64,000 bases of DNA from Blasia pusilla (Eukaryota), in assembly GCA_050084515.1 (NCBI GenBank), contig CM114271.1:36022001-36086000 (forward strand), given 5' to 3'. A model generated the notes under the pieces. It was not told where the DNA came from. It saw only the letters and a program-made list of their open reading frames with translations, and did no database searches. Below are positions 2,420 through 51,864 of this stretch, one piece after another. Both the position numbers and the translations under genes were made by a program. Position 1 is the stretch's first letter. Each line of letters opens with the position of its first letter.

Positions 2420-3208
2420 AACAAATACGATTCATAGCTGGGCTACGGCTATATCATGCCTTCTGAAGATTCCCAAGATTCGATGAGAATTCTACCTAAA
2501 ACCTGACGGAGATAGTTTATTAGATCAAAAGACTTCCACTCGGTCCGGAGGAAGTAGGACCTTCCAACGGGTGAGAATCGGTCCTGAGAGGTCGGTTAGA
2601 AACTTCCTTCGATTGCCGTAGACTCGTAGTGTCATGGACTCATGGCAAGACTCGCGAGTCAATATGAGACTTAATTGTTGGACAGTTGTAGCCTTAGACC
2701 GAGGGACCGAAACAATATGGGTCAATAGGATTGAGCTTTTCCGATGTTGGGGCGATTGTACCCAAACTTGCCTGTGGAGAACAATCGGCATTAAGTTACG
2801 ATGCCGGCGGTGGAGGTCCGGCCGCCATATCGGCGTCACCGGAACTTAGGGCTGCAGCCTTACGGGTACGTGGACCACGAGAAGTCGATGAAGTTCCTAG
2901 CATCACGAAGGTGAGAGTGAGCTACATTCTAGGCCGGCTTTACAGGGAGGCATATTAATATCTCGAAGTGGTCCACTTCATCTAGCTTGCGTAGGGTCAT
3001 GTCCAATGGGACATTTGATTTGGATATTATAGTGAATACATATGTTTGTAAATGTATTATTATTGAAAAGTGTCTATTTTATAAATTATTTATTTATTTT
3101 TAATGGTAGGATAAGATAGTTTCAAAAGTTCATTTGAGATGATGAAAATTAATTATGAAAGATAATTTAAATTCGAGACTTCCAATTATATTAGAAAAAA
3201 ATCCATAG

Positions 3209-3268
3209 AAATCGAGTGCAAGTAGACCTGCCCATGTTAAATCGAGTGCCAATAGACCTACCCATGTT
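3209..3268. repeat. 30-bp tandem duplication
   Basis: AAATCGAGTGCAAGTAGACCTGCCCATGTT followed by AAATCGAGTGCCAATAGACCTACCCATGTT. Confidence 0.75.
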
Positions 3269-6200
3269 TGAGTAAGATGCCCCTTTCCTAAGATGGCCTT
3301 CACTTACTCTACTCTGTGAATTCGTTTTTTTATTTCGAGTTCTACTGTTTGAGTTCGTTTTGCTTGATCTGAGCACCACGAAAAGGCCGCGTGGGTTGCT
3401 TACCCAGCTAGAAAATGCGCATCTAAACGGGGCTGGCTAGTTCTAACCTCATATCGTGTATCAACTCCTGTCTAATATCGTCCAAACACCCGACTCCCCG
3501 GGGTTTCAAGGTACAGGAAAGAGAAAGAAAAACACGACCTAAAGTACATGGGGAAGGGGAGATGATGTCAGACATACATCTCTCCATTTGGAAAGAGCTT
3601 TGTCAGTGACCGTGGAGTGCAGGGCGCGAGAGTGTGCCCTGTTCTTACTCTAGCTGCGTGCAGCGCGCGGTTTAACCCGTGGCCCACCGACCTCGTTTAG
3701 CCTCATTTAGCAGGTTATTTCTGGACTGGCTCAAAGAGTACAGATTGCAGACTCTACTACAGACTGCCTGTAATTAAGCGAGACGAAATTGGGGACATAA
3801 TGCGACGCGTCCTTCCATGAGCACCTTCTGCATCTTCTGCAGTTCTGTCGTTTAGGTTTGCGATGGAGATTGCGTACAGTCGTAGCGTCCAGTACTGGTA
3901 AGTTCTGTTTCGTCCGTCCACCCATGGAGTTACGCTACTCTATATGTGATATACTCCATTCAATAGGGATCCTCTTGTGGTATGTGAGGGCTGCTGGCAG
4001 GAATTCGCGCACCCACCTCTCGAACCTACTCGCGAGCTAGAAGGAAGGAAAGAATTCCGCCGACTTCCTTGGCAAGTTCCGGGTAGCTTTTCGAAAGAAC
4101 CGGTGCTTTGCAGGGACGGCATTTTGGAAGTTTTCTCGTTGCCGGTCGACCATGTCCAGTCACCACGGAGATTTGAAATTTCAACCGGCCGGCTTGAAAT
4201 CTCAAATTTCCACCTGGTAGCTCCAGCTGTCACGAAGGGCGTGGCCGCGCGGCCTTCACAGTTAAACGATCAATGTCGGCGAGATTTATGAGTCTGTCCG
4301 GATATATCCCAGGAACACGTATGCCGCACAGTGTTCCACTTGTTCCCTTAACTTGTTACGCCTCATTCTTGGATCATTATCTCTGACGGATTTCACGGCG
4401 GGTTATGTGGATGAGGAACTAAAAAATCTAAGTATCGCCGATCGCGTAACCTGGCATTCGAACTTCGAGTCTTCGAGCACAATTGATTCCCGAAATCATT
4501 CTTGTGCCTCGACGAAGGGAGTCAGATCTTTCGCATCGCGCACCGTCCTCCGAGGCTCCGCGTACACTGTTCTACTCAGGTTGACATAATGTGGGCCGGG
4601 ATCACATCCAGTGAGCTTGGCATGACCCTCGCCGTCGGGCGCCCACTCCACTCCAGATTTGAGGACTGGAGGTGAATTGGTGTTGGGAGTCGACGTAGTT
4701 AGAAATTCCGAGTTGACGTAGACAGTTACTGACGGTCGGTCACCCAACGTGATTCGTGATTCATGACCCACGGGGCATCTCAGGCGTGAGAAAGTCTCGA
4801 CTGTGGACTGTCCACTCGCACTCGGTCCCACGAACCGTTTTCTTCCCTATTATCATCGCACCTTTCTGCTCTTCGCACTGGGAAAGAAAGATGCACTTCG
4901 ATAAAAACGAGTGATGGAAAACCCATCGGAAGTACAAAGAGGGGACCATCTGAAGGCCACAACCGACAGAAAAGGAAGAAGAAGGGGCATTTAGCGACGA
5001 AACTGACTGACAATTCGCAACAACAAGGAGCTATGACTACTACTAAGTGGGCCTCTAGCGCGGCGTCTGGGTGAGCCCGCAAAAATCCCAGTATGGAGAG
5101 TCCTTACATTAAGGACAACCCATTTCTGAGTGGAGATGGAATGAATGATCTCTTGGCGAGGGGATGAAGAGATGTGTCTTCGCCGGGCTCCTTGACTGGG
5201 CCACCACTTGGGGGTTAGGAAATTTTCTCAAATGACAATAGCTCCTAATATTCACATTTGGAACCCTAATATGAACCGAATTTAAAAGATGAATAAAAAT
5301 AACTTCACGCCATGCAAAAAAGGTCCGGATCAAAACGAAGCTCTCATCACGCTCTCCGTTTCGACATGTAGCACGTCTCTTTTTCGTCCCCCTACGCCCT
5401 CCGTCCTTCCTCCCGCCGTCCCCGTCCATGGATGCTGCTCTTTGAGAAAATGAGGACTGGGAGGGAGGACGATTTTCCATCAACCGACAGCATTTATTGC
5501 TGTTCGGGACACTCGCCTTTGGGTAAGTAGTCCTTACATTGCGGAATGAATGATTGGGGAGATCCGGGGTTACGAGTAAGGGTTAAATCTGAGAATATCC
5601 GATTAATTTTAAAGTTGCCTACGAAAAACCGGTTGGATTCGAGGATGCTCTTTGTATTTCGTATCTGAAAACCGGTTCAAAAACCGGAATTTCCGTTTCC
5701 GATTTACCATTCCCGATAATATACCGGGTCCCACTAAAAAACTCCCCGGACCCTGAGTGGAATTGTCTCCGCAATTACGCAATGTCTAACGGACACCATT
5801 CACCGGAGCCTCTCGCACCTCAGTTACATCCCGTGATCTTATGTGGTCGATTTTATTCCACTGTCCAATCTTTTCACGGTGACTATTTTGTTCTATAAAA
5901 CTAGTGTGACCCCCACCACCTCCGCATGACGTTCCAATGCCAAAGCTTGTGCACGTTGTAAGGCCACTAAGATGCATTGCCGAAAATAAGTAGTTGCCGA
6001 TTTTTTTTTTTATAGTAATCTTTAGGGAGACATGATATGATGAGGGAGACACTATTTAGGCATGGGAATCCTTGCCTTTAATACAAACCACCACGGAGAC
6101 ACAATACAAACCATAATATGTATTGATTTGTTACAATACATAGCAAATCAATATAGAGGTATTCAATTTTTGGAATTAATGATAATCCATAATAAATGCC

Positions 6201-7212
6201 ATAAAAGGTTGAGAGGATTCAATACAAGAATATAAGATTAATACGAATCCGCGAATACATAAAGATGGACAATATAAAATGACGAAGAATACATAAAGAT
6301 GGTCAATACCCAATTAATACAAATCCGTGCAACAAGTAAAAGTGTAAGAGTTAAGAGTTATGGATAATACATTAAGACGCGAATACAAAATACGACCAAT
6401 ACGTCGAGAACCTAATCCTATTCATCCAATAATTGGTGTGACTACAGAAAGTATTGGATTCTGCACGTACCTAAGAGGGAACCGAAAAATACAGGCTTTA
6501 AGTTGGGGCCGTAAATATTTCCTCTACCAACCCTTCCTACCTTAGGACACGTACATGGTCATCCGTGGACCTGTCCATCCCTAGGACTAGTAAGACAAAC
6601 ATGTCCGGGCACCCAAACGTGTCGAATTTGTAATGAAGATCTAGGTTTGTTCAACTCGCACCTACTTATAGTCCACATGAAGCTTGCAAGACAGGTTCAG
6701 GCATGCACGGCCTTGAGCCCGCCCAACCTGCCCTACGGGCAGTATGCGGGCTTTATGCGGTGTACAAAATAGGTTTGGGTTGGATGAGCGCGGGTCTATG
6801 TTATATGCTCGGTGGGCTCGGATGTGGACGAGAACCTGTTGGGCATGTTTGTCTCATGGACGGACTTGTTCGTTTCCACGTAACCTTGCTCCCACCCGAC
6901 AACCTTTCTTGCACTTACGCAAGAAAAATTGAGAGTTCAAGGTTTATCGCCCAGCCACTAGGAGACAGTTCAAAATTCTCCATTATCACATCTTTGGTGT
7001 TTACGACCCATACGAATACTCCTTGTCTTCAACCTATCTAAGTGTCTTTTATGAGTTATGTCACGTCTTTTATGATAGATCGGTGAGATCTAGTAGAGCG
7101 CCTTCGTGAGTAATAGAAGACAGGCTCAATAGGTCGAGGATGACCTACTGAGGCTCCGGGAGACCTGAGAGAGCAGGTTTCCTCTTCGTTTCGGCTCATT
7201 TAGGGCCATATT

Positions 7213-8217
7213 GAGGAACTTACTATTTTAGGTAAGTACCATTTTGAGTATATAATTGACTTTATATTTTTTGTAAGTGGCCCTTGACCTCCTACATCAG
7301 GTCAAGAGCTAAGGAGGTGACTTGGGAGCATAGGTTACCATGGAGAGAGCTTGGGAGAGGGGAGGGGTATACCTAAAGGAGAGAGAGCTTGAGAGCTCAT
7401 TCTCTCTTTGTTGAACTTGTCGTGCAAATACACATCGCTGTACAACATACAATGTTGTCATCGAACACACACAAAAACACACACGATCCCATGCTAACTC
7501 ATGGCATCCATACACAGAGGCAAGAAGTACCAAAATATCTCCAATTAAAGTAAGATCCAATCTCTCTCTACACCATCTCACACCATAACTCTCAAAAGTG
7601 TGCACTCTCTCTCATGTCAAACCAAACCCACTCTCCTAATGAGAGGCTTGGGTTATACTCACAAGGCAAGGGACCATAGCTCCGCCGCCTTATGCCAAGA
7701 GGTTCAACAAAGAGAGAATGAGCTCTCAAGCTCACTCTTGGAGGTATACCCCCTTCCCTATCCCAAGCCCTCTCAACGGTAACCTATGCTCGTAGGTCAC
7801 CTCCTTGGCTCTTGACCTGCTGTAGCGGGTCAAGGGCCACTTCCCAAAGTGGAAATTCAACTATCCCCAACATGGAAACTTACCCAAAATAGTAAGTTTA
7901 TCTATATGGCTCCAAATAAGCCGAAATGAAGGGGAAACCTGTTCTCTCAGGTTTCCCGGGGCCTCAACAGGTCATCCTCGATCTCCCGGGCCTATCCTCC
8001 ACTACTCGTGCAGACGCTCTGGTAGATCCCACCGATCTATCTTAACAGTCGTGACAAACCTCTTGGCATGAGGCGGAGGAGCTATGGTCTTGCTTGCCTT
8101 GTGTGTGTAACCCAAGCCTCTCATTAGGAGAGTGGGTTTGGTTTGACATTGAGAGACATGTGAGAGTGCACACATGTGAGAACTATGGTGTTGTGAGAAA
8201 GATTGGATCATATTTTA
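7213..8217 (+). repeat. 5' direct repeat 'B' (LTR-like) of gypsy copy 1, split by solo insertion 7418-8056
   Basis: GAGGAACTTACTATTTT...ATTGGATC.TATTTTA matches 19466-19829 and 43694-44053 once the insertion is removed. Confidence 0.9.
7418..8056 (-). mobile_element. Solo terminal unit (A-B-C, 639 bp) of the same gypsy family, inverted
   Basis: Reverse complement reads TGTCACGACTG...GCACGACA and aligns to 5' segment A, repeat B and 3' segment C; flanked by AACT/AACC (4-bp TSD, one mismatch). Confidence 0.9.
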
Positions 8218-8232
8218 CAAAGAGAGAATGAG
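8217..8232 (+). promoter_or_regulatory. Putative self-priming primer binding site of gypsy copy 1
   Basis: ACAAAGAGAGAATGAG is the exact reverse complement of CTCATTCTCTCTTTGT at 7396-7411; the same pair occurs at 44053-44068 / 43877-43892. Confidence 0.65.
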
Positions 8233-9810
8233 TGATTGAGAGAGCTTCATAGGGGAGCTTGCTGGTTGCTCGATGTTTGGTGCAGGTTGGGGGACCGTAT
8301 TCCCCACTTTATGGTTCATGGGAGTGCTCACCGGAGCAAGAGCCGTGCGAGTTTTCTGTTTTGCTTTGTTGATTTTTGGTACGGGAGAGTGGCACGCGGA
8401 AGCGCTGCCCAATTTTTGATAGGAATTGAGTATGGGGGCGGATTGCTCCATGCTAGTGCTCTCGAGAGCACCATATAGTTTGCTGATTTGTGTCCTTACA
8501 AGTTTTAGATTTTCATTGGGAGAAATTAGGGCGGAAGCGCTACCAAATTTTGTGTAGGAGAAAGAGACATTGGGCTTTACAAAAATCCTTGTCAGTTTTC
8601 ACTCGAATGTCCGATTCAAAATATTTTGTGATAGCGTCGTAGATCGTGAAGCTATACACATTGTGCAATAGATGGTGTGTAATTTATAGTTGCAAAGAAA
8701 AATTTATGGTCAATCTTGCAAAATTGCCATTGATAGGAAATTTTTAGGGTTAAATTGTTCAAACCCTAAACCAGCCGCCACGCCGGCGGCGGCCATCCCC
8801 GTCATAGTCACCATCAACGGTCCACTGTCAATGGTCAATTGTCACCGTCAATAGTCAACCGTTACCGTCAACGGTCCGCCGTCACCATCAATCGTCCACC
8901 ATCCACCGTCCACTGTCGGCTGTTGTCCACCCTTGGTTGCCATTGCCGCCATTACGGAGTAGAGGATCTTCCACGACGCCCGTTGATTCTCTATCTTGCG
9001 CCGCCACCACGTACTTTATTTTGGCCACCATTGTCATCGCATTTTCGTCATCAACTAGTGATGGCAGGTGACCTCGGGTTATGGTGTTTGAGTTTTCATT
9101 TCATGCTGCTATGTTATGATTGGTAGTTGCTCGACGACGATTGAGTACCCTGCCGTGACGCCCGTAGCCGCAATGCGCCGCCGATTGCCGCGCCGTGCCG
9201 CTCGTGGCCGCACCGCACCGTCTTGATCGCGAAGTTGGTCCTTCACTAAGGACCAGAGTGTGTGAATTGCTGATTTTGGAGGGTATGCCATCGAGTGCCG
9301 CACCCCATTCCTGAGTGCCGTGCCATTTGTAGCCGTTCCGTGCTGCCAGTGCCGCACTGGACGGCCGGACCTGCACCGCACATCGAGGAGGTTTGATCAG
9401 CGTCCGTACGAGAGGAGTACGACTTGCTGATTGGAGGAGTTGTCTTCACCACCAAGTTGGGGTCGAGATTGCAATTGTCGAGGAGCGAAATTGACATTAT
9501 TGTCAAGTTACCCATTCTGGTCTCTTACCCTGGACGTGTGAGGGAATTACGCATATTGGGCAGTTATTTGGGGATATTGGGTTTCGTGCAGATGCTTAAA
9601 GCACCATTGATGTATGGGTTTAGGGGACATAGACCTATGTGGGATGTCCAGAGTTGAGGGTATATCTTGTCAATGAGATGATAGGATGGTAGTCGATTGC
9701 CACACCATGCCGCTTGTTGCCGCACAATTCACGTCTCAGTGAGAGAGTGTAGATTGAGTACTGCATGTTAGATTGAGTAATTAAGTGATTACACGCAAGG
9801 TTGAAAATGA

Positions 9811-11345
9811 TTGCGAGAGAGGGGCATGAGGGTCATCACGGGGTCCTTTCGGGATTTTGACAGGCGAGGTAGTGGACCTGAGAGTAGCTCTGGAGGGTTT
9901 ACCCGGAGTGGTGCGAGGTTCCGAGGGCCTCCACGTGAGAGACCACCTCGATCTCCTTCTATGTCATCTTCACACGAGGGAAAGCGTGTAGAGGAGCGTG
10001 TTAATGATCCAATGTACACATTGAGTGATCCTACTAGTTGGGCGTACGAGATGGACGACCAAAATAGAGGACCGCATAGGTTTTCAAGTGCTCTAGGCAC
10101 CGTAAAGCTACACGACTTCATTGCGGAGTTTAGGAGTTGGTATGACTCACAACGGGCTAGGAACTCTAGAGAGTTCAACCTGTTTACATCATGGAACGGT
10201 ATGTTCCAGCATTTAGAGGGGGCGCCCATGGACGATTACCATGAGTTCTCCCACAAATATGCCGAAGAGATTGAGGCATGGCGACTCTACTATGACCCAT
10301 ACTATGTGTCATGGACCGAGCCGTTCCCAGATGAGGAGGAGGAGTTATGAGAGGCTACTTCCTCTTCCACTAGTGATGTTTTAGGAGGGATCACTCGCAT
10401 TGGAGCAATTGCACCCTCTAGTCAGGTTCGTTCAGGTTCAACCCCGTGGTTGAGTTCTTCGCTGAGTTGAGGGCAAGCTACCACGGGGTACGGACGGAGA
10501 AGTTGCGGAGCATCCACGACTTCCAGAGGCGCCCAAGTGAGAGTTTGCATGAGGCTTACACTCGCTTGCGCCGGTTGATCAACATCACTCAAGGGGTGAT
10601 AGAGGCTCAGGCTATCCAGTCATGGTATGCGATGCTGGACCGGATCCTACGGACACGGGTGCGGGAGGGGTGCTTCTTATGAACACCTCCCATATGTTGA
10701 GAGATGTTTTTAGGACTGCTAAGAACATTGAGCGCAACATGGCGGAGGAGAGCGTAACCACCATGGGTTCTGGGCGAGAGCAGTTACGATTGTCTGCACC
10801 ACTTGTGCAGCAACGTGGACTCCGAGATAGGTCAACTGTGACACCACGAGCTCAGGAAAGATATCAGGAGGCCGTGCCACAGAGACGTGCGCCTTCATAT
10901 GCGGCTCAGCAGCACCCACCTACGATTACTTGTTGGTCATATGGTGGAGCCCATCATCCGTGTGATTGCACTCATTAGAGTCACGGATGTGTGCCTCAGC
11001 ATGGAGGAGGAGATGGTGCTGCACCACGAGGTTATCAGTGTGACTATTGTTAGAGGTATGGTCATTCACGCGCCAGGTGTTTCAATTTACATCTTGAGTT
11101 ACGTATGGACCGAGGGCCAGAGAGGGCACCAGAGCATGTAGCCGGTCCGGGTGGGCCTAGAGATCGTGCACCAGGTGGTCCCGTTGGGGGACGAGGAGCT
11201 GGAGTTGTCCGATAGGGTGGCGGAGCTAGCCATGGAGGAGGTAGAGTCCCAGCATCTAGATGCGTTGAGGGAGACGTTGGGCGCGAGGCTAGGATGGCTG
11301 ATTAGATACATCAATTATAGGAGCAAATTTCCGCTATGGCATTGA
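9811..11345 (+). pseudogene. gag (capsid-like region plus two CCHC zinc knuckles), frameshifted
   Basis: EFFAELRASYHGVRTEKLRSIHDFQRRPSESLHEAYTRLRRL (retrotransposon gag-like); knuckles TCWS(Y/C)GGAHH..DC and CDYC*RYGH...RC. Confidence 0.8.
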
Positions 11346-11827
11346 GATTACCTGATGTCGGATTAGTGGCATCGACATCATATGGAACAGCAAGAGATAC
11401 GGAGGATCCTGGTTGGATGTGCGGGATTGCCCAGTTGGAGGCCGCCATAGTTCTAAAGTGTGGAGCAGCCGCAAAGTTGGATCCACAACAAGGGGAAACT
11501 AGGAAATAGACTAGTCTTCCTCAATGTTTCACGTTGTTTGAGGCGATGAAGATCCCATCGATGGGTCTTGATCAGAATTCCTGGAGAGTTGGTGATGTTG
11601 TTGGTGTGCAGGCACGGAGGACGATGGGAGAAGCAAGTATGAAGACTCCTATTGTTGATGCTCATGAGGGGCATGTGTCGAGCTTGTTGCTGGGGGCGGC
11701 CACCGTTGTGTACCGCGCTCCTTTATTTTCTGCTTCCAATGTTATGACATCGGGAAGTACGCCCGTCGAGGTTCTTTGGCTAGCCGCTACGCTATGTGAG
11801 CGTGGAGTTGGAGTTCCAGCATCACGT

Positions 11828-13111
11828 TGTCGTGTCGAGAGCCTTTCTTCGAGCAAGGGCGGGCCTTCTAGCTGCGGTAGATGCGATCGATGCAAGGTGA
11901 ACTCTCTAAGAAGTTCTCCTTTTTCAATACAAAATTATGATGTACGCTCTCCATTCTCTCACGACAGGTATCACAAATGGAAGTGCTGAGGCGATCACTT
12001 CTTCGTAACATCGGACCCCGAAATTCCTAACTATAAAATCCCTATAAACTATTTTACGCTTGTACACGAGGAAGATAGCACAACTAGTGTTAAACCCTAC
12101 TTGAGCAGGCCTATTGACATCCATGGGTCGCTATATAAGGACATACAAAGTACAATCCCATGTCCTTCCATATGTGACGATAGGAAGAATCACCGGAGTT
12201 GGAGATTGGATACCCTGGTTCATGAACGCCTTCCCAAAGTGATAAACTAAATATCGAGTGAACCAGTGTCTATCTACAAAGAGTACCTTGACATGGCATG
12301 GATTGAAGAAAGGAAAGTCGGGCACAACTCGTGCTCCACCCCTATCCATGCTTGACAGACATTCTTTTCTCTCTTCAAGAATGGATTTTGGCGGAATTAT
12401 TCTCCCAAGAGGGGTAATCCACTCTCATTGGGGAATTAACAAGCCAAAACATTCACTATTTTAGTATGACTAAACTCTTCTAAGGTGAAAAACCTCTCAT
12501 CTCCACACACACACACACACCACACTCTAGAAACCTCTCGAAGAATAGATCATGATCAAGTTACTCTCCCAAGAGAGGTGATCCATTCTCATTGGAAGAG
12601 CAAGCAATCCCAAAGCCATACACTCAAGAGAGACACGAGAGACTCAAGATATGGAATAGAAGGTGATGAACCCTTGAAGGTCCCTCCTCTTTATATATTC
12701 AAAAGAGACCCACAAGAGTACGAAATAGAACTAATCTTATCTTGTGCCACATGGGTTCCTCTCAAGGCTTAGCCAATCACATTTTGACACAAGTAAATTT
12801 CTTCTTATCTCTTCCAAAATATCCTCTTTCACCTACTTGATATTTTCCAAATTACCCCAACTAATCTAGCCACCAACCAAGCCTACTTTTTCTTTTCATT
12901 AAAGCACTAACCTCACTACTTTACTTTAATAAAGTCATCCTTTATTTATTACCTCTTTTCCTAAAGTTGGGCCCGCATAAAAGAGGCACCATAAAGAGGT
13001 GTAAACATGGGAATTTCCTTTTCCTAAGCTAATTTACTTAATACTAATAAAACTCTCTCTAACACTTAACTAGGAAGGAGTTTACATACTGGCTGATTTT
13101 ACTATACGACA
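11828..13111. mobile_element. Nested solo-LTR-like insertion (1284 bp)
   Basis: Termini TGTCGT...ACGACA; perfect 4-bp TSD ACGT (11824-11827, 13112-13115); absent at the homologous site of copy 2 (~47647). Confidence 0.85.
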
Positions 13112-13156
13112 ACGTTCAGAGGTGATTGCCGAGGAGGTGATGGACCTGCCCTTGGA

Positions 13157-14157
13157 TGTCGCGACCCTCATGACCAAACAAGTGCCAAGCGGAACATCGG
13201 AACATTAGCGGGCTCACGCTAAGATGGTTTGCGCGTTGGAGTTGTCTCAAGGAGGAGACAAGAGACGAGACGCGAGCGAGAAGTCGCGTTTCAGATGTGA
13301 TGGTCGCGACTCAGAAACCTGGACCAAACGCGGAATGAGACTTGAAAGAAGTCGAGTCTAGGAAGTGGGTTGCCAAAGGAAAGATCCGGATTTGGAACGC
13401 CACTTGCGTTTGAGAGTTTCCGACTGTATTTATGGCCATAACTTTTAGCGCCGAGATGCGTTTGGAGCAAATAAGGGTGCGTTGGAAAGCTTATGGAGAA
13501 CCAGTCCAAACGCACCAAAGATCACTGCAAACGCATAAGCAGCAGCCAAGATACGACCCAAAAACGACTGTAAATGGAGTCGGGTTGAGGGCCACAATGA
13601 AGGCCCGAACCTCTTTTCCCAAAGGGAAGGGGTTATTGGAGAACCCCAGAAGTACTAGTAAGGGGGAAGGTCTCCGAGAATGCTTGGAACCCAAACCCCA
13701 CTTTGGGCGCCGCGGGGCCGCTCAAGGGCATGAAACGGAACGCGAGTTTGGGCGTTGGGTTGGAAAACCTGCACCAAGTCCATTGAGGCGATTTTAGACA
13801 TCCCTCTTGGATTTCACGCCGCGACTCAATTACTTGGGTCTCGGTTCGGAACTCACACGAGAACCGTTGAACAGTTGGGATCGCTAGGCGTGCAAGTGCC
13901 GTTTCAGATCCCTGGACTAACCAGGAAGTCTGTTCCAAGTCTTGAAGGACTTGCCATGTGTGGGGAGCTAGGAACTAAGGAAGGTTGAGCTTGATGAGAT
14001 GCCGAGTTGAGGACTCGGTGGGTTGGAACGCCGGTTGGCCAAACCCGACTAACGAGAGTGCGTGTTTGGGTGCAGATCGGCGATGAGTTCGTGACCTACT
14101 GAACGCACGCTTCCGCAACACTAAAGATTGACGTTCAAGGAGAGTAGGGGCGCGACA
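13157..14157. mobile_element. Nested solo-LTR-like insertion (1001 bp)
   Basis: Termini TGTCGCGACCC...GGGGCGCGACA; perfect 5-bp TSD TTGGA (13152-13156, 14158-14162); absent in copy 2. Confidence 0.85.
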
Positions 14158-14214
14158 TTGGAGTAGATGCTCGAGCCGTCCACGTCAGATTCATGGTAGG
14201 CTGTAACTGCTAGG

Positions 14215-14847
14215 ATGGCGAAGATGCCCACTAGACCCGAGATAGAGCATGCCATGGTTTTTCTTGGTGTTTTGTTGCTGGAGAAACGGGGAGAGGTCTT
14301 CCAATTGGTGAGTCCCGGAGGTAGAGCTTTTAGTCCGCAGCGTGTCTTGTTAGATTCAAGAGCGCAACCCCTGATGTTGGGGAAAGCGTCATTAAGAGGA
14401 TTGGGCTTGACGAGAGCCGATGTGGAGCGTTTTCCATTCCGGATACAGATATCCTTGGATGGAGAGAGTACCACACAATATATCACCCGACATGAGGTTG
14501 TGGTGAGGATTTTCCTAGGACATCCTACAGATGAGTCTGTGGTGCGAGCCAAGGCCATAGTGACTGATGCAGAGTCCTACGACGTCTTGGTTGGTGGAAC
14601 ATTGTTATATCCAATGGGGTTTTTCCTGGATTACTGGGAGAAGTCAGCGTCCTACAGACTAGGATGGCAGTCAGGTGATGGGCCCCTTAGCTCATTACCT
14701 GTTCGATTCACAGATGCAGTGATCGAGCGACGGCGAGGAGAGATGGCGACCTTAGCAACATTTAGTAGTGCCATCACTTGTCTTAGTGATTTGATTGAGG
14801 GACATGTCCATCCAGAGTATACTTTCGTTTATGATATTCCTATGTAG
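14215..14847 (+). pseudogene. Retroviral-type aspartic protease domain of gypsy pol
   Basis: RVLLDSRAQPLMLG (degenerate D-S-G) and YDVLVGG (D-x-L-x-G) motifs. Confidence 0.8.
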
Positions 14848-15060
14848 AGTAGTGTCATGGTAGTTGCATCAGTCTGTGGAGGAAAGGTGCCGTTTTTGGG
14901 CTCGACTGAGGAGCTTCGACGCTTAGCCATTGAGCATGTGCAAACCGTGTGGAGCGAGACGTTTGCACTTGAGTATGACGGATTAGAGGAACCCCAAGTA
15001 GGTAGGAGTGTTACTATGACCCCTTTGGACACCATCCCAATTTTGTGGTGCATCCCAAAG

Positions 15061-16000
15061 AAGGGTATTTGGGTGTTGGATCTCTTTGGAGGGATCAACA
15101 CTAGGTTAGTTGCTGTTTTGCACGCTGGAGTGTGCGTGCAGCAATACCTATATGTGGAGATTGATGATGTTACGAGGCACGCTTCACTTCACCATGTGGC
15201 GTTGTTACTCCTTCATTTTCTCGACTTGTTGTCTGCGTCCGCCATTCAAGATTACCAGAGTTCCTTATCGAGGGATATTTCATTGTTGGGGACGCAGGAC
15301 TTGGAGCGGGTAGGGACCATAGACTTGGTCATTACTGGTTGGCCGTGTCACGGCCAATCAAGTGCTAGACAAAGAAGCTTGTTAGCTTTTGGAAGATGAT
15401 GCGGATCTTGCGACATTTAAAGGAGCATCACCCTTCTTCTCCAGCATATATTTTGTAGAATATGCCAATTTTGGGCGATTTGAGGTCCCACGTGGTGACG
15501 AGTGCACATCATGTTCGAGCAAAGATTTTCCCGACAGTGTTGTTAGATGCGGTGAGTGTAGGTTCTAGAGCATACCGCCCGTGTGTTTGGTGGACCAACT
15601 TGATGCCACATCAGGTATTGCGGAGGGCATATGCGAGAGTGGAGCGCTCCTCTGATTTGTTGGTGGATTCTATATTGGATTTGGGCGGTCAATCACACGC
15701 TGTCAGGCACGATGATGGACCGCCGTTGATTGTGGTCAACAGGATTGGCATGCCACGAGCAGCCTTTTCCACATTGGTGAGTTTTCGTGCTACCTATGCA
15801 TTCAAGGAGGCCGGACCTAGTTTGGTTTGGGATGACCAGGTACAGAGGTTGGTGGAGCCCAACGCCGATGAGCAAGAGCAAGCGATGGGATTTCCCACAC
15901 GAGTGAGAGCAGTACCGTCACTACCGGAGGCAACACGACGTCATGTCTTGGGTCAGGAAATGGACCTGAACTGCTTGACATGGATTGTAAACTTAGGAGT
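15061..16000 (+). pseudogene. DNMT3-like C5 cytosine DNA methyltransferase domain embedded in gypsy pol
   Basis: Ordered motifs: I VLDLFGGI, II YVEID, IV DLVITGWPCHGQS, VI YIL*NM (ENV in copy 2), VIII DAVSVGSRAYRPCVWWTNL (AHRPRLWWTNL in copy 2), IX EQAMGFP, X RRHVLGQEMD. One frameshift near 15370 and a stop at 15456. Confidence 0.9.
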
Positions 16001-16304
16001 AGCTGAGCAACGTCGTTTGAGGATGCGATGCATCACAAAAGTTGCGTTGGTGAGCCCCATGCCTATCGAGACAGTTGAGGCATTGGCTGGGGGTGAGACC
16101 CAAGGAGATCGACACACCAGGGGTGATCGGGAGAGACACCCTTGGACTTCTTGGGATGTTTTGCAGGTACATCCGGAGATGATAGCCACAACATTGAGTG
16201 TGGTTCCAGATACCACACGTGGAGATGAGAGTTCTATTGTCCGAGACGAGGTTACACCATAGAAACCACCGACACCCGCGTCGGAGAGTCCTATTGTAGT
16301 CACA

Positions 16305-17778
16305 ATGGAGACTTGGGAGCCAGATATGGGCCCTAAGTTGACAAGAGGAGAGCAGTGCTGGATACACCAGTTCCTTTGGAGTTATAGGAGCTATTTTGCA
16401 TTTAGTATGCATGATTTGGGTATGCTGAAGGGTCCAGGGATCCGCATTGAGTTATCGAGTGACAAGCCGATCTTCCAACGACCCTTCAGGTATAGTGACA
16501 TGGAGAGGGCTCTGATTCACCGTAGGATCCAGGACTTGGTTGGAGCACGACTAGTGGAGATGTCGCATGGAGAGTATGCATCTACCACTATCATGCCCGC
16601 CAAGAAGGATGTGCATGGAAATTGGACGGATAGGCGGATGTGTGGAGATTACCGACCTATCAATCGGAAGACAAAGTTTGATAGGTATGCCATGCCCACC
16701 CCTGAGGAGATCTTTGATGCGATTGGGCATACAAAGATCTTTAGTTCATTGGATTTGCGAGCTGGATACCATCAATTGCCTATCAGAGTAGAGGACAGGC
16801 ACAAGACGGCATTTTGGGGCATCAATCCTCACGGGAAGGATTGTTTGTACCAATGGCGGTTCTTACCATTTGGGTTAAAGAACGCCCGGCTGAATTTCAG
16901 AAGGTCATGGATAGGATCTTGGCAGGTTTGGATTTTGCTAGGTGTTATATTGATGACATCGTAGTCTTTAGCGCCACAATTGAGGAGCATGAGCGACATC
17001 TAGAGGAAATGTTTCGACAATTGCTCTTACATGGGCTAAAGTTACATCCATGCAAGTGCAAGTTCTTCCATGGCTAGATTGAGTACTTGGGTCATACGAT
17101 ATACCTAGGGGGACTTGGTGTGCAATCGATGAAGGTAGAGGCTATTTCACGCATTCCACGCCCTACAGATGTGAGTCGAGTTCGTGCATTAATGGGATTG
17201 GCGAACTTCTATCGACGGTACGTCAAGGGTTTCAGTGTGATTACGAAGCCGCTAATCTTGAAAACCAAGGTAGATCAAGAGTGGCACTTGGAGGATGAGC
17301 AAGAGAGAGCATTTCAGATGCTCAAGGAAAGATTGACGTCCGCATCCATATTGAGGAGACCAATCAAGGGGCGTTCTTTCAATTGCTTATCGATTGGAGC
17401 ATGTTGGGGCTTACAGCCGTGCTCACCCAGCATGACGATGATGGTAGAGAGTTCATGGTGGCTTATGCTAGTCGCTCGAACAACGCTGCAGAGGTTAAGT
17501 ATAGCTCGTATAAGGGTGAGTGCTTGGCTGTAGTGTGGGCTGTTGCACATTTTAGATGTTATCTATTCGGAAATCCCCTTACCATCATTACTCATCATGA
17601 GCCACTTAAGTGGTTAATGGAGTCCGACAAGCTTACAAGAAAGCTTGCGAGGTGGGCTCTTTTGTTGCAGGAGTATGATTTCCAGGTGGTGCATAGACCT
17701 GGGACGCTCAACCAGGATGCAGATGGTTTGAGCCATAACCCATGCTTGAGTCAGCAAGATATGACTCGAGCTCATTAG
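16305..17778 (+). pseudogene. Reverse transcriptase and RNase H of gypsy copy 1
   Basis: RMCGDYRPIN, SLDLRAGYHQ, LPFGLKNA, YIDDIVVF; RNase H DWSMLGLTAVLTQ, VAYASRS, ECLAVVWAV, LARWALLLQEYDF. Confidence 0.95.
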
Positions 17779-18109
17779 CATGGTGAGAGTGATGAGGAGT
17801 TGGTGCTAGGATGGCATGCTTCAGCCTATTTGGGCTTGGTGGCTATGGAGAGCCAGATTCTTGAGACTTTGATGGCGAGGTCTGATGGAAAGTCCTTAGA
17901 TCCAGAGGCCGGTGAAGAGACAATACGTGACCGAGATATTCACGACAATGGAGTGGTCTTGGAGTATCTGTGTATTGGCAGCGTCGCGAGCACAGTGGGT
18001 ATGAGAGAGCGGGATCGGATCCTACAGTGAGCCAGACGGTTTCGGTGGGAGGGCACACATGTATTACGAGTGTGGGCGGATGGTAGAGTGCGTGTAGTGC
18101 CTCATCCTT

Positions 18110-19200
18110 TGTAGAGAGCACGTTTGGTGCGTCATGCCCACGAGGAGTTGGGTCATTTTGGAATGAAGCGGACGTACAGCTTGCTCTAGATTTAGTATTG
18201 GTGACGAGGCATGCAGATTGACGTTCAGCAGTTTGTTGCCAGATGCATGGTGTGTGATCGAGTCCGAGCATCGTTCAATGCTTTGACTCCATAGTTGCAT
18301 CCACTTCCGATCATGGATTTAGGTTATAGATGGAGTTTGGATTTTGCAGGACCTTTGCCTTTGACGGAGCGCCATAGTCGTTATGTGTTGGTGATGGTCG
18401 AGCACTTCTTGAAGTGGATAGAGTTAGTTGCATTGCCTGACAAAGCGAGTGAGGGAGTAACGTATGCCTTCCTAGATCGAGAGCTGAGTCATTACGGTGT
18501 ACCAGCTGAGGAGTTGACAAACCAGGACATGGTTGCGGGGAGTTTCAGGCCTTGTGTGATCAGGCACCAATCAACCACCGCACTAGTTCGCGAGATCATC
18601 CTGAGGCGGATGGACTAGCGGAGCTGGTTGTGCGGACGATGAAGAGAGGACTACACAAGTATGGCTTGTAGAGAGGTCACCTAGGAGATTGAAAACCTTT
18701 AGTTGTCGTGGTTGGCGATGGGATACAAATTCAGCAGGGAGGCATCCTTAACGTCTTTCTCACCATACTTGTTGCTTTATGGCCGAGAGCCAGATTTACC
18801 TGCAGCCATTTTTCGAGATGTTGGTGAGGTGTTGAACCTTGAGGACCCTGATGCATGGATGTGAGCATGTTCTTAGAGGGCTGAGTTGTTTCGGAGAGTG
18901 ATGCCCATGGCGTTTGAGAACTTGGCAATTGCGCAACATCGAGATACGTTGAGGTATGCAACTATTCGTGGAGGTGGTTATCGACCTACTATCTAGAGGT
19001 TTCATTAGGGACACTATGTCTACTTGCAGCAGACGGCACCCACGATGTTGGATGTGACTGCAAGACGCACCATCTTGAGAGTGCGTGAGGTTTTGCCATC
19101 TAGTGTTCTCTTATTGGAGGGACGCGATGGTATGGTTTGGAAGGACCATGTGCGTAATTATACGCCATGTCATCTTCTGAACTTTGACGGTACACTTGAT
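18110..19200 (+). pseudogene. Integrase (HHCC zinc finger, catalytic core, C-terminal domain) of gypsy copy 1
   Basis: HAHEELGHFG...CMVCDR; WSLDFAGPLP..YVLVMVEHF..WIE; several stops and frameshifts. Confidence 0.9.
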
Positions 19201-19230
19201 CTGAGCTTAGCAATAGTTCCTGCAGGCTTG

Positions 19231-19374
19231 CGATTTATGTTGTGTGGTTCCTCCCGTAGTGCAGCCACTATGCTAGTCAGTGATGGGTGTTCGAGAGGAT
19301 GGCATATAGCATGTTTGATGCCATCTCTCACTAGGATTCTTGAGGGACGATGGATGTGTCCCACATGTTCATAG
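19231..19374 (+). pseudogene. PHD finger at the C-terminus of pol
   Basis: (F)MLC...MLV(S)DGCSRGWHIACLMPSL..ILEGRWMCPTC fits C4HC3 spacing; two Cys are one substitution away (TTT, AGT from TGT). Confidence 0.85.
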
Positions 19375-19465
19375 AATAGGTAGTTCTACATTCCGACTTG
19401 TGTCTGTGACATGAATGACATGAAGGCGACTAACGATGGGGCCACATGAGCACATTAGCGTCCGA

Positions 19466-19829
19466 GAGGAACTTACTATTTTAGATAAGTATCATTTTGA
19501 GTATATGATCGACTTTCTATTTTTGGTAAGTGACCCTTGACTTCCTACATCAAGTCAAGAGCCTAGGAGGTGACTTGGAAGCATAGGTTACCATGGAGAG
19601 AGCTTCGGAGAGGGGAGGGGTATACCTCAATCAGAGAGAGTTTGACAGCTCATTCTCTCTTTGTTGAACCTCTTGGCATGAGACGGCGGAGCTATGGTCT
19701 TGCTTGCCTTGTGTGTGTAACCCGAGCCTCTCATTAGGAGAGTGGGTTTGGTTTGACATTGAGAGAGATATGTGAGAGTGCACACATGTAAGAACTATGG
19801 TGTTGTGAGAGAGATTGGATCTTATTTTA
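19466..19829 (+). repeat. 3' direct repeat 'B' of gypsy copy 1, followed by unique terminal segment C (19830-19956)
   Basis: Aligns to 7213-7417 plus 8057-8217; segment C aligns to the solo unit end (7418-~7545, minus). Confidence 0.9.
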
Positions 19830-34038: not shown

Positions 34039-37000
34039 TATTGAAGATTGAGTTACAATCAAACTCATGAAATACATGAAGTGCTATATTTGGTACTCAC
34101 ACAAAGTAGGGAAGCTTAATCTTGGTTAGTCAGTTAAGCGCGATTATCTTAACTAGGGTTAGTTAATCACAGTTCGTCTAACTCAAGACTATGGTTAAGG
34201 TTAGGATTAGGGTTGTTTGTACATACCCTATATAATTAAGAAGGAGACCAGCCTCCACTCATTCTCTCATTGGAAATTTTGTTCTCCATGGTGGTGTGAG
34301 AGCCGCTTCCCACCAATTATGCTTCTCTAGTAGTTTTCCACGTGGTATCAGAGCGATTGGAGAACATCACTTGAAATTCTTCATGTTTGAGGAAAGAAGA
34401 GAGGCAAGAGAAGACACAGTTTCAGTTTGGGAGAAAGAAATTTTGTTCAGAGCTCAGTGGATGCAGATTTCAGGTGGAGCTTTGACAGTGATAAAACTTT
34501 GGAGGCATTTTTTAGGGCTTTTCCGATCAATTAAGCCATCTAGGTCCGCAGCAGCTAGAACTATGCCAAAGGCTAGTTCTAGCCTCCTTGAAGAGCTCGT
34601 TGAGAGCTTTCCAAGGCATCCAAAATTGCTCAATTTTGACATTCTGAGCTCTGTAGTAGCAATTTCAGTGTAGGAAAGTGCAATTAGTGAAGAAAAGTTG
34701 TGCACTTTGCTCTTTACAAGCCAACTCCGACTAGTTCTTTCAAATAGTTGATCAATTTTGACAAATTTCAAGTTGATTACTGTGTAGGAGTGGTCTATGC
34801 TTCAATTGGAGTAATGGAGAGCCTGAAATTATATTTTAATGAGTGAAATAGTTTGTCATGGAGTATTCCTCAAGAGCAATCACAAGCGAGAAATTAGATA
34901 AACCGAGTTACAATGTCTGGAAGTTTCGCATGAAACAATTTCTCATGGATCAAGAACTATGGGAACTTGTTACAAGTGATGAGGCCAAGCCAGAAGGTGA
35001 CTCAACAGACTTGAATGTTCGCGCCTGGAACAAACGCGCAAGGCAAGTAATCCACTACATTTCAATAACGATTTGTTTGCCAATGATAGGTCATATTCAA
35101 GATGTTGATACTCCGAAGGAGACTTGGGATGCATTAGAAAAGCTCTTCCAAACATCTACAAAGGCCAAAAAGATTCAATTGAAACAACAATTGAACGAAG
35201 TGAGGAAAGGATTGTAGAGCATCAATGATTATATTTTGAGTATCAGACATATTTTTGATCAGTTAAATAGCATTGGAGTGACAATAGAAGATGATGATCT
35301 GATTTTGTTCACTCTTCAAGGCCTTCCAAAGGATTAGAAGTCCTTTGAGACTCTATCTCTATGAGAGAGAAGTATCCAACCTTTCAAGAGTTAGTCCCAC
35401 TATTAATCAGTGAAGAGATGCGTCGGGGGCTGGTATTCTGGCAGGAGAGAGGGAGAGAGGAGAGGAAGAGAGGAAGAGAGGAAGAGAGGAGAGTCTCTCT
35501 TAAAAAAAATGCACAAAAGTGAAAAAAAACTGAAACTCTCTTCAAAAAATATAAATAATAAGTGATTAAATTTTTTGAAGATTTTTTTTAAGAGAGGAAA
35601 CTTAGTGCAACCCGTCGCAATCCGATGGGTTGCAATTTTTGGTTTTTCCTTCTTTTTTTTGGTTAAGGAAAATTTTCATTTTTTTGTGTTTTTTTAACAT
35701 TTGCAACCCGTCAGACTCCGAGGGGTTGCAAGCGTTAAAAAAAACCAAAAAATGAAATTTTTTCCTTAACCATTAAATAAAACCAAAAAAAGTTGCTACC
35801 CGTCGTGAAAAGGTAAAATAAATTAGTAAAAAAATTTCCTTTTTTTTTTTTTCATCACCAATTTTTATTGGAAAAAATTGCCTTTTCAACTTGTCAAAAC
35901 TTTCCTCTCTCCAATCTCTCGAAAACTCTCTTCAACCTCTCGGAAATTCTCTTCAAACCAAAAGAGCCCTAGGGGGCTGTCAATATCTTCCTCTCTCCTC
36001 TCTTCTCTCTCCTCTCTCCTCTCTTCCTCTCCTCTTACCACTCCTTGAGATGTGCCTAGTAGGCAGCGGTAGCTCGTCTAGTCTTCAAGAGAGTGCGCTA
36101 TTTGTAGGTTATGGATCAAAGAGAAGTAGGGGTCGTGGCAGAAGCTTCCGTGGTCGTGGTGGATATCAAGCATATGGAGGAAGAGGCACTCAATATAACG
36201 TCACTGAATCAACTACGAACCAATACCAGACACAATCACAAGGTGATGATGGTGGAAACCGTTGGGGTCGAGGTCAACAATAGAGGGTCCTTGGATCTTG
36301 CAATTACTGTGGCATAAAGGGTCACTATGCAAATTTTTCTTCAATAAGAAGGCAGATATGAGAATAAGAGCCTTACAGCGACAAAACTATGTGGAGCAAC
36401 AATACCAAGGGCAGTACCAAGAACAACAATATTCACAAACGGAGCATCTCTTGGTCATGACTCATCGTATGGGATCAATGGTCAAGAAAGATTTGACAGT
36501 AGATTGGTACATTGAATCTAGTGCATCAAATCAGTTTGGAGCCGGTGAAAGATCCTGCAATTGTGCTCACAAGAGATGACACTCAACATTATATCACGCA
36601 TACCGGTAAAGTTCCAATAGCATCAGATGATCTCTGTGCTCTTGGAAATGTTCTCTATGTTCCTACTATTGTAAGAAACTTAATCTCTGTAAGACTGATA
36701 GTAGAATAGAGCTATTAAGTGTAGTTTAACGTAGATGGTAGTTTCATTGAAATAATAGATGACAAGACTACGATAGCCAAAGGAACTAGATCTGGGAGAA
36801 TGTTCAAATTAGATGTTTCTATGCGAGAGATTCAAACAACAATGTATGGTCAAACCGGCCAACAAGTCACAGATCTAAATGTGTGGCATAAGAGAATTGG
36901 ACATATGAATCTTCAAAGATTACAAAGTCTTTCATCGTCTAATATAGTAATATGACTTCCTAAATTAACGAGGTCTACTACGTTAGAGGTATGTCCTGCT

Positions 37001-51133: not shown

Positions 51134-51864
51134 GTATGGGGGCGGGTTGCTCCATGCCAATGCTCTCCAGAGCACCATGTAGCTCTTTGATTTTTTTTAG
51201 AGGTTTTCAATTTTCTTTGGAAGAAATCAGCACGGAAGTGTTGCCAAAATTTATGTAGGAGAAGAGACGTTGGGACTTACGACAGTCTTTGTCAGTTTTT
51301 ATTCGAAGGTCCGATTCAAAAAACTTTTTAACCCCATTCTAGATTGCAAAAATGCGGGGTGTACAATAGGCGGTCGTGATTTGGAGCTGCAAGCAAAAAG
51401 TTATGGTCAATCTTGCAAAATTGTCATTGTTAGGCAATTTTTACGGTAAAATTGTTCAAACCCTAAACCAGCCTCCGCGTTGGCAGCGGCCGTTTCCGTT
51501 AAAGTCATCGTCAATGGTCAACTGTCACCATGAATGGTCCACTAATGCTGTAATCGGTCCACCGTCATCATCAACAGTCCACCGTCCACCGTCAGCTGCC
51601 ACCGCCGCCTAGCTCTGCTCAGAGCCGCGTTCGGTCGTTGTCCGCCATTACCGCCATTACGGAGTGGACAATCTTCCACGATGACCATTGATTCTTTGAC
51701 TTGCGCCGCTACCAAGTACTTTATTGTGGCCGCCACTATCATTGCAGTTTCGTCATCAAGTAGTGATGGAAAGTGACCTCGGGTTATGATGTTTGAGATT
51801 TCATTTCATTTTGCTATGTTGTGATTGGTAGCCGCTCGACGATGATCGAGTACCGTGCGGTGAC
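51134..51864 (+). mobile_element. 5' leader fragment of a third member of the gypsy family
   Basis: Aligns to ~8430-9160 and ~44280-45045 (GTATGGGGGCGG...GTAGCCGCTCGACGA..GTGAC). Confidence 0.8.

Follow-up and report, generated by a model that had tools for sequence, protein, structure and literature searches.

Two copies of a Ty3/gypsy retrotransposon whose pol region carries a putative DNMT3-type cytosine C5-methyltransferase (C5-MTase) domain lie within a 64,000-nucleotide stretch of the Blasia pusilla genome (NCBI GenBank assembly GCA_050084515.1, contig CM114271.1, positions 36,022,001 to 36,086,000 of the forward strand), hereafter called the window, with positions counted from its first letter. 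We consider it very likely that they are two dead copies of an abundant, transcribed Gypsy family that carries this domain and belongs to the streptophyte Gypsy-DNMT3 lineage; how the enzyme might act is what we infer. Judged from sequence, there is little doubt that the domain is a real derivative of DNMT3 and that the family is a member of that lineage. The copies are collinear, lie on the plus strand at ~7059-19829 (copy 1) and ~43540-51111 (copy 2), and are about 78-88% identical in a self-blastn comparison of the window. The order in the family is gag, protease (PR), DNMT3-like C5-MTase, reverse transcriptase (RT), RNase H (RH), integrase (INT), and PHD finger. Matches from Pfam, tblastn, and self-blastn gave the PR-RT-RH-INT order of Ty3/gypsy elements together with flanking pairs of long terminal repeats (LTRs), with the 3' LTR of copy 1 truncated and the 3' half of copy 2 missing. 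An earlier note on this DNA, made from its letters alone, had proposed that a gypsy retrotransposon here carries a DNMT3-like methyltransferase in its pol; this was borne out by searches with hidden Markov models (HMMs), by the ranking of profile matches, and by the PR-DNMT-RT order of relatives.

The domain was recovered with a profile that contained no window sequence. This profile, HMM A1, was built from the domains of 14 database relatives and searched against the 1682 stop-to-stop six-frame pieces of the window of at least 25 residues. It matched only five of them at E<=10, exactly two from copy 1 and three from copy 2. In copy 1, these were 15459-16259 (E 3.9e-40, profile positions 175-340), referred to here as the C-half, and 14848-15396 (E 1.3e-19, profile positions 13-121), the N-half; in copy 2, they were 48829-49269 (E 4.5e-10), 48519-48899 (E 2.3e-9), and 49303-49527 (E 1.3e-4). 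The profile envelope in copy 1, 15058-16004, agrees with the interval 15061-16000 in which the domain had been noticed. A search with the C-half also found protein P0001 (E 3.7e-21), whose N-terminal 360 residues matched both the N-half (blastp, 1e-6) and the C-half (2e-30), and that region used as a query returned 68 Gypsy polyproteins. At the level of sequence, these results confirm the predicted methyltransferase domain as real and far beyond chance.

Translation and alignment, together with the HMM A1 hits, placed C5-MTase motifs in order between the protease and RT in both copies, as the earlier note had described. Motif names are used as textbook labels, with positions set by alignment to relatives and DNMT3A. 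In copy 1, the reading 14848-15396 contains motif I (LDLFGGINTRL) and motif IV (ITGWPC), and the reading 15459-16004 contains a motif VI remnant (stop-N-M where relatives have E-N-V), motif VIII (GSRAYRPCVWWTNL), motif IX (EQEQAMGF), and motif X (LGQEMDLN). At the matching place, copy 2 has LDLFGGISIGL, IVGWPC, SENVPIL, GSRAHRPRLWWTNL, RERAVMGF, and LGQAMD. Thus, motif I (LFGGIN in copy 1, LFGGIS in copy 2) and the P-C of motif IV (GWPC) are kept in both copies. The ENV of motif VI and the HRPR of motif VIII are kept in copy 2, which agrees with what had been claimed for that copy, while in copy 1 the Glu codon has become a stop, followed by NMP, and motif VIII reads YRPC.

Three-frame translation likewise agreed with the reported frames of copy 1. 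The N-half is in the frame of the protease ORF (open reading frame) at 14200-14847 and is parted from it by the TAG at 14845-14847, which is a Glu codon in copy 2; G stands at 14845 in 594 of 674 and 646 of 728 genomic family reads, so that 88% differ from the stop letter of the window. The C-half is in the RT frame, with one intervening stop at 16260-16262. The separate frames are therefore a true observation in copy 1, but they do not describe the layout of the element: because the shift sites differ between the copies and intact relatives read from gag to INT as one ORF, the split over two frames is decay. A programmed frameshift inside the domain was considered and ruled out, as the shifts lie ~10 codons apart and go in different directions in the two copies, and the relatives have one ORF. 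The lesions of copy 1 comprise the stop at 14845-14847, a frame change at ~15375-15400, the stop at 15456-15458, YRPC in place of HRxR, and the stop at 16260-16262; genomic read depth falls to ~150 at 15371. Copy 2 shifts frame right after GWPC and again near motif IX and has several stops. Both window copies are pseudogenes, old inactivated insertions with stops and frameshifts. When the window copy was compared with the genomic reads, A>G (215 places) and T>C (193) were the most frequent classes of difference, as would be expected had deamination removed C and G from this copy. For CpG, copy 1 has an observed/expected ratio of 0.70-0.83 and copy 2 one of 0.96.

The assignment to DNMT3 was examined by ranking matches in the PDB. 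In a phmmer search with the window N-half, 27 of 30 weak matches were DNMT3A/B/C (best E 0.16). With HMM A1, the best 26 of 56 matches were DNMT3A/B/C (1.2e-18 to 4.5e-13), followed by plant DRM (3.7e-11), M.HhaI (8e-8), HaeIII, and DNMT2 (1e-3), with no DNMT1 at E<=1. A second profile, HMM A2, was made from eight streptophyte-type segments, Calypogeia P0069, and two window pieces. Its best 29 matches were DNMT3A/B/C, from 6.6e-24 (DNMT3A) through 2.3e-22 (DNMT3B) to 1.7e-18, and after these came DRM (1.2e-13), HhaI (1.7e-11), and DNMT1 (0.055). The whole DNMT3A catalytic domain was aligned, including a short target-recognition region. An AlphaFold2 model of the domain of a relative, P0034, had a predicted local distance difference test score (pLDDT) of 88.1 and a predicted template modelling score (pTM) of 0.89, and among the Foldseek matches listed for it (to rank 50) all were DNMT3A/B/C, with E down to 3.2e-17 and a template modelling score (TM) of 0.82 on the target. 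Profile matches to the N-half (13-121) and the C-half (175-340) follow genomic order, so motifs I to X are unpermuted, unlike in plant DRM, which has a permuted order and scored ten orders of magnitude worse than DNMT3. The cellular enzymes DNMT3A/3B/3C are thus the best match in profile, fold, and motif order, although identity to them is only 20-24% and the domain of the element is part of a polyprotein, without PWWP or ADD.

An HMMER scan with the window C-half against 1.84 billion representatives matched 592 proteins at E<=1e-3, of which 254 reached E<=1e-10 and 9 reached E<=1e-30, the best being 56% identical. The nearest proteins are from liverworts (Calypogeia and Marchantia, 53-59% identity), followed by Closterium and Klebsormidium nitens, in keeping with the land-plant host that had been thought probable from the letters alone. 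Judged by these relatives, the host is most likely a land plant of liverwort type. Named relatives include, from liverworts, Calypogeia fissa (56%) and four Marchantia polymorpha proteins, from streptophyte algae, several Closterium strains and K. nitens GAQ93235.1, and from green algae, Cymbomonas; the search with the P0001 region also named the green algae Haematococcus and Monoraphidium. The four M. polymorpha proteins, P0070, P0076, P0077, and P0171 (OAE24016.1, OAE20926.1, OAE29514.1, and OAE22373.1), are annotated as "hypothetical proteins" and are fragments of the PR-DNMT region of the element. P0070 and P0077 gave no Pfam match, perhaps the reason that they escape surveys relying on PF00145.

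Relatives fell into two architectures. Among the 68 proteins from the P0001-region search, 37 had an RT and/or RNase H match, and in all 37 it lay upstream of the DNMT domain, giving the order RT-RH-DNMT-INT-PHD. The PR-DNMT-RT order seen in the window occurs in Klebsormidium, Closterium, and Marchantia proteins and in several unnamed ones. In P0088/P0212, one ORF contains CCHC (530-547), PR (796-888), DNMT (978-1226), RT (1421-1575), RH (1638-1766), and INT (1895-2061), and K. nitens P0144 (GAQ93235.1) reads CCHC, protease, PF00145. Typing of 214 profile-hit proteins gave 96 RT-RH-DNMT, 22 PR-DNMT-RT, and 96 untypable. P0005 and P0055, which have a protease match, a DNMT domain far downstream, and no RT match, resembled the window-type architecture but fall in the chlorophyte clan of the tree described below.

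We built a tree of 69 domain rows, comprising all rows that were not RT-RH-DNMT, the 3 named RT-RH-DNMT rows, a random 30 of the 75 unnamed RT-RH-DNMT rows, and the two window halves as separate rows (quick IQ-TREE, LG+G4, unrooted, with support from the Shimodaira-Hasegawa-like approximate likelihood ratio test [SH-aLRT] only and no bootstrap). One branch (SH-aLRT 99) separated a 26-row clan, made up of all 16 PR-DNMT-RT rows, both window rows, and 8 untyped rows, from all 33 RT-RH-DNMT(-INT) rows and 10 untyped rows. Calypogeia is the partner of the window C-half (92) within a liverwort set (100), and Klebsormidium is in the same clan. Because the PR-DNMT-RT order is the same and the window rows share one clan with the K. 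nitens protein, the family is best assigned to the streptophyte Gypsy-DNMT3 lineage first described in K. nitens and not to an independent capture. The earlier note had left a related or an independent lineage open; the clan shared with the K. nitens gag-PR-DNMT protein favors the former and disfavors the latter. Both clans share the derived signatures AHRxRxxWTN, ERExAMG(F/Y), LGxxMDxN, and PTL(M/V). The same DNMT domain occupies the RH|INT junction of pol in green-algal elements and the PR|RT junction in those of the streptophyte clan; because a single tree branch separates the two junction types, it appears to have moved once within the polyprotein.

Abundance and transcription were assessed by mapping genomic DNA reads and three RNA runs that carry the same species label on 13600-19600 at a likeness of at least 80%. 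Of 12,434,590 genomic records, 122,163 (0.98%) mapped to this interval; only 388 of the mapped reads were at least 99% alike, and 91,825 were under 90%. The family is therefore old, diverse, and very abundant, and the ratio of 122,163 to 388 (~315) suggests, as a rough figure, some hundreds of copy-equivalents. DNA depth, with both directions summed, was 1140-2440 in the six DNMT bins, 2260-2530 in PR, and 2930-3640 in RT, so recognizable DNMT sequence is present in at least about half of the copies. A depth over the domain that is about half to equal that of PR, RT, and INT supports the earlier claim that the domain is a heritable part of the family. In the three RNA runs, all bins from 14002 onward were covered (the DNMT bins by 23-57 reads), and the reads were strongly one-sided: 23-265 had the first mate on the minus strand, versus 0-22 on the plus. 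With stranded libraries read in the usual way, such a bias corresponds to sense transcripts. With only 3-13 RNA reads per run at least 99% alike, the family is transcribed, but this locus itself is not demonstrably so.

Conservation pointed to selection on the domain. Over the 14 relatives, 45 columns are invariant, among them the motif I glycines, the Cys-Gln of motif IV, the E-N of ENV, and the R-x-R of motif VIII. The ratio of nonsynonymous to synonymous substitution rates (dN/dS) was calculated from codons threaded on the DNA alignment, with wrong frames as controls, for the single pair of copy 1 and copy 2, in which any signal is diluted by post-insertion decay. It was 0.40 in the DNMT C-half (wrong frames 0.89 and 1.42), similar to RT (0.32; wrong frames 0.89 and 1.03) and gag (9811-10350, 0.30; wrong frames 1.10 and 1.16), and 0.47 in PR (wrong frames 0.63 and 0.68). 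These values fit selection on at least the C-half while both lineages were active and agree with the Ka/Ks below 0.2 given for K. nitens copies in the main text of PMC5890265.

Several observations weigh against this reading. The proposed dN/dS comparison between copies gave the expected result for the C-half only: in this one pair, the N-half showed no signal of selection, with 0.68 against 0.37 and 0.58 in the wrong frames. A search of the five window DNMT pieces with Pfam PF00145 gave no match for any of them, even at E<=10; taken literally, this is an outcome that the earlier note had named as refuting its proposal, although it does not refute it in substance. That check, also proposed beforehand, was positive in intact relatives of the same order, P0088/P0212, at 46-48 bits against a cut-off of 22 (P0088 46.1). 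K. nitens P0144 (58.4), Closterium P0163 (31.4), and P0081 (45.5) also passed, P0001 (20.6) and P0005 (19.1) were slightly under the cut-off, and scores across the family run from 19 to 58 bits. The window C-half gave no phmmer match in the PDB at E<=10. Both copies are broken, and copy 1 has lost the motif VI Glu to a stop and the second Arg of RxR (YRPC). DNA depth over the DNMT domain is below that over RT and INT, and some copies may be without the domain, or it may have diverged past the 80% threshold; the shortfall perhaps comes from greater divergence, because identity between the window copies is 74-77% in the domain versus 84% in PR and 89% in RT. Finally, support for the term "DNMT3-derived" comes from profile ranking, from the fold modelled for a relative, and from a published tree, our own tree being unrooted and without host DNMT3 genes; on that basis, the assignment of the domain as DNMT3-like stands.

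In intact members, the whole of pol would be made as a single polyprotein, and the domain would be an active de novo, S-adenosylmethionine (SAM)-dependent cytosine C5-methyltransferase. Because the SAM-binding motif I, the catalytic Cys of motif IV, the ENV of motif VI, and the RxR of motif VIII are kept, an active enzyme is the most likely interpretation of the domain, and we regard the chance that intact members are active as about evenly balanced. The methyltransferase could be carried with Pol into the particle or pre-integration complex, where it would methylate the newly made complementary DNA (cDNA) or the DNA that flanks the insertion. That the element methylates its own cDNA or insertion site, as de Mendoza et al. 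proposed, is a tentative suggestion that we hold to be rather unlikely. The C-terminal PHD finger may tether integrase to histone H3 tails, like the chromodomain in chromoviruses, which similarly have a histone-reader domain at the C-terminal end of integrase, with a chromodomain there and a predicted PHD finger (PF00628) here. In the PDB, the PHD finger of copy 1 resembles those of CHD4, ATXR5, KDM5 (KDM5A/B), and PHF21A (E 6e-9 to 3e-7), several of which are readers of unmethylated H3K4. The two window copies are incapable of any of these steps.

The main rival is that the domain was retained in a non-enzymatic role: it might bind DNA or chromatin for the element or, much as DNMT3L acts without catalysis, recruit host DNMT3 or block it. 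We consider this possibility doubtful. It would account for two further points that count against an active enzyme. Motif IV reads E-C-Q in place of the canonical P-C-Q in many members of both clans, among P0001-P0068 as well as in P0088, P0197, and Closterium P0163 and P0177 (9 of the 14 A1 segments; 4 of the 8 A2 segments, namely these last four), and the KnitGypsy-Dnmt3 domain of K. nitens produced no methylation in yeast, the sole published assay of it in the main text of PMC5890265. The low PF00145 scores throughout the family also fit a non-enzyme. However, P-C is kept in K. nitens, P0081, P0034, and both window copies, and the invariance of the catalytic Cys, the E-N of ENV, the R-x-R, and the motif I glycines in 14 diverse relatives is hard to explain without catalysis. 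The yeast result was called inconclusive by its authors, as human DNMT3B failed likewise in that assay. In yeast, the DNMT3 domains of Symbiodinium retrotransposons perform de novo CG methylation (PMC5890265, main text).

Two other explanations concern the origin of the domain. Independent capture, separate from the Klebsormidium and chlorophyte elements, is very improbable. DNMT capture by retrotransposons is recurrent according to the available text of PMC5890265 and of a preprint (10.64898/2026.05.21.726589), and the chlorophyte relatives place the domain elsewhere in pol, but its position and order in the window are those of K. nitens, Closterium, and Marchantia, all in one clan (SH-aLRT 99), the derived signatures are common to both clans, and window and chlorophyte elements have homologous PHD regions. 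That a fragment of a host DNMT3 gene or a nested insertion came by chance to lie in both copies, without being part of the element, is refuted for practical purposes. The window is a nest of repeats, and copy 1 has a foreign 2.3-kb insertion (11827-14157) just upstream. Against this, both copies carry the domain at a matching position and are 78% identical across it, intact relatives read through PR-DNMT-RT as one ORF, and read depth runs unbroken from PR through DNMT to RT; the borders of the domain lack the pile-up of junction reads that marks the true insertion at 14157/14158. A domain of DNMT3 type that is part of the element, inherited within the streptophyte lineage, thus remains our preferred explanation.

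The closest described system is KnitGypsy-Dnmt3 of K. nitens (de Mendoza et al. 2018, PMC5890265), which, as given in the main text, likewise belongs to Ty3/gypsy and has in its pol a DNMT3-like domain that is not rearranged. A K. nitens protein, P0144, shares the CCHC-protease-PF00145 arrangement and the clan of the window element. According to that text, K. nitens has few copies, in contrast to the ~1% of genomic reads here, and K. nitens is an alga, whereas the window host is nearest to liverworts, that is, to land plants. The window element ends in a PHD finger, which the main text of PMC5890265 does not mention. The chlorophyte and metagenome Gypsy elements of RT-RH-DNMT-INT-PHD order (Haematococcus lacustris, Monoraphidium neglectum, and Cymbomonas tetramitiformis) have a homologous DNMT domain (33-46% identical to the window halves), integrase, and PHD finger (the PHD region of copy 1 matches theirs with E down to 9e-28) but carry the domain between RNase H and integrase, not between PR and RT, and form the separate clan. 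SymbioDIRS-Dnmt3 of Symbiodinium also has a DNMT3-type domain inside a retrotransposon pol; these are DIRS elements with a tyrosine recombinase, in dinoflagellates, and an independent capture according to the authors (PMC5890265, main text). The EpiLTRs of Cymbomonas and Euglena are LTR retrotransposons with a cytosine DNMT as well, but, in the available text of the preprint (10.64898/2026.05.21.726589), that DNMT is sister to DNMT4, follows pol at its 3' end, and is accompanied by a Dam adenine methylase as well as a chromodomain. EpiLTRs are set apart there from "streptophytes (Gypsy-DNMT3)".

Coordinates of the features of both copies are collected in the table.

Table. Features of the two copies of the element in the window, and of the insertion in copy 1
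Feature	Position	Strand	Basis or remark
Copy 1 5' LTR region	7059-8217	+	LTR at 7059-7416 and 8057-8217, split by an inverted partial LTR duplicate at ~7417-8057
Copy 1 gag-like region	9811-11141	+	Several ORF pieces; collinear with copy 2 45680-47134
Foreign 2.3-kb insertion in copy 1	11827-14157	+	Absent from copy 2; a different repeated element, outside the family
Copy 1 aspartic protease (retropepsin-like) ORF	14200-14847	+	Ends in TAG at 14845-14847
Copy 1 DNMT N-half	15058-15396	+	Motifs I to IV (FGG, GWPC); protease frame
Copy 1 break inside DNMT domain	15397-15458	+	Frame change; stops at 15397-15399 (old frame) and 15456-15458 (motif VI Glu)
Copy 1 DNMT C-half	15459-16004	+	Motif VI remnant NMP, then VIII, IX, X; RT frame
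Copy 1 RT	16263-17362	+	PF00078 E 1.2e-7; tblastn of P0088 1333-1662; one frame change near 16745-16964
Copy 1 RNase H	17377-17778	+	PF17917 E 2.3e-32; tblastn
Copy 1 integrase, in pieces	17908-18969	+	rve E 2.5e-4, below cut-off, at 18295-18618; tblastn of P0101 1049-1534 and P0088 1668-2181
Copy 1 PHD finger, C-terminal end of pol	19009-19374	+	PF00628 E 5.5e-8, 33.2 bits against a cut-off of 24
Copy 1 3' LTR without first ~154 nt	19466-19829	+	Matches 43694-44053 at 86% (self-blastn)
Copy 2 5' LTR, TG...CA	43540-44055	+	Self-blastn
Copy 2 gag-like region	45680-47134	+	ORFs, collinearity; piece 46278-46538 a weak Retrotrans_gag match, E 0.007, below cut-off
Copy 2 protease region	47691-48300	+	Collinear with 14166-14780
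Copy 2 DNMT domain in three pieces	48519-49527	+	48519-48899, 48829-49269, 49303-49527; profile hits, translation, alignment
Copy 2 RT	49815-51111	+	Element ends at 51111, without RNase H, integrase, PHD finger, or 3' LTR

The protease ORF of copy 1 gave no Pfam match of its own. It was identified by blastp to the region upstream of the DNMT domain in Marchantia P0077 (2e-34) and in P0081 (1e-25) and P0156 (2e-25), and by tblastn of P0088 803-926, which overlaps the Asp_protease_2 match of that protein (796-888) and hit 14335-14709 (E 1e-4). At the ends of the element, self-blastn matched 7059-7416 to 43540-43897 at 90% and 8057-8217 to 19667-19829 at 94%, and the inverted LTR duplicate within the 5' LTR of copy 1 was recognized from matches of 7546-8057 to 44053-43539 at 86% and of 7417-7898 to 19957-19470. 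Ahead of 19466, where the truncated 3' LTR of copy 1 begins, 1964 reads hold the sequence of copy 2 43664-43693.

The insertion in copy 1 is seen as a gap in collinearity, with copy 1 passing from 11827 to 14166 where copy 2 passes from 47647 to 47691, and 939 genomic reads that put family sequence immediately before 14158 mark its right edge. It is itself highly repeated, with a DNA depth of ~1400-1500 over 13600-14001 (both directions summed), and is nearly untranscribed (RNA 0-4). In other copies of the insertion, reads continue beyond 14157 into sequence with TGGTATCAGAGC. We take TGGTATCAGAGC to be a tRNA-Met primer-binding site, so what was inserted may be an LTR, solo or terminal, that belongs to another element.

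Other repeats were noted around copy 2 and elsewhere in the window. The RT of copy 2 contains a tandem duplication (49958-50422 and 50423-50891, 92% identical). The leader region of the family, at 8430-9159 in copy 1 and 44279-45044 in copy 2, appears once more at 51134-51864, directly behind the truncated RT of copy 2, with 73-76% identity; this third stretch may be a further partial copy or, equally, a DIRS-like repeat layout of the kind reported for the terminal repeats of the K. nitens element in the main text of PMC5890265. A Copia-type element is present in two copies of opposite orientation, 36047-39671 (+) and 52118-55782 (-), which are 87% identical; its minus-strand ORFs for RT and integrase at 52442-54344 are long, and local GC is low there (0.38-0.40). 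A repeat pair at 41915-43539 and 57678-59370 is 80% identical, and one member abuts the 5' LTR of copy 2.

An element of this kind is already in print, in the form of the K. nitens Gypsy-DNMT3 (PMC5890265), and the window family extends its host range. The record of retrotransposons with their own methyltransferase, in the main text of PMC5890265 and as cited by 10.64898/2026.05.21.726589, consists of dinoflagellates and one streptophyte alga. On elements of this kind, our literature search, whose coverage did not extend to supplements and subscription journals, turned up only the 2018 paper (PMC5890265) and the 2026 preprint that cites it. Within that coverage, neither land plants nor chlorophytes were reported as hosts, and the PHD finger and the two architectures went unreported; the words Marchantia, chlorophyte, and PHD are absent from the main text of PMC5890265. 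The presence of the lineage in liverworts, the large green-algal sister clan with another pol junction, and the ~1% share of one land-plant genome may be new. With these data, the Klebsormidium lineage extends to liverworts, as fragments in Marchantia polymorpha and Calypogeia fissa and as a very abundant transcribed family in the host of the window, and it has a large sister clan in green algae, with the putative enzyme and the PHD finger combined in both clans.

The two copies in the window are fossils only. A retrotransposon with its own cytosine methyltransferase inverts the familiar relation of a host that methylates its transposons, and if an intact copy exists in a tractable liverwort, self-methylation of cDNA and its benefit would become testable. 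A broader scenario, which we offer as speculative and regard as improbable, is that a PHD-bearing Ty3/gypsy element captured a DNMT3 domain once, near or before the chlorophyte-streptophyte split, kept it under selection, moved it once in pol between the RH|INT and PR|RT junctions, and passed via Klebsormidium and Zygnematophyceae to liverworts, where it would still be transcribed at ~1% of the genome, with its enzyme contributing to host methylation. If this were true, land plants would carry a transposon-encoded de novo methyltransferase that has gone uncounted in their methylation toolkit.

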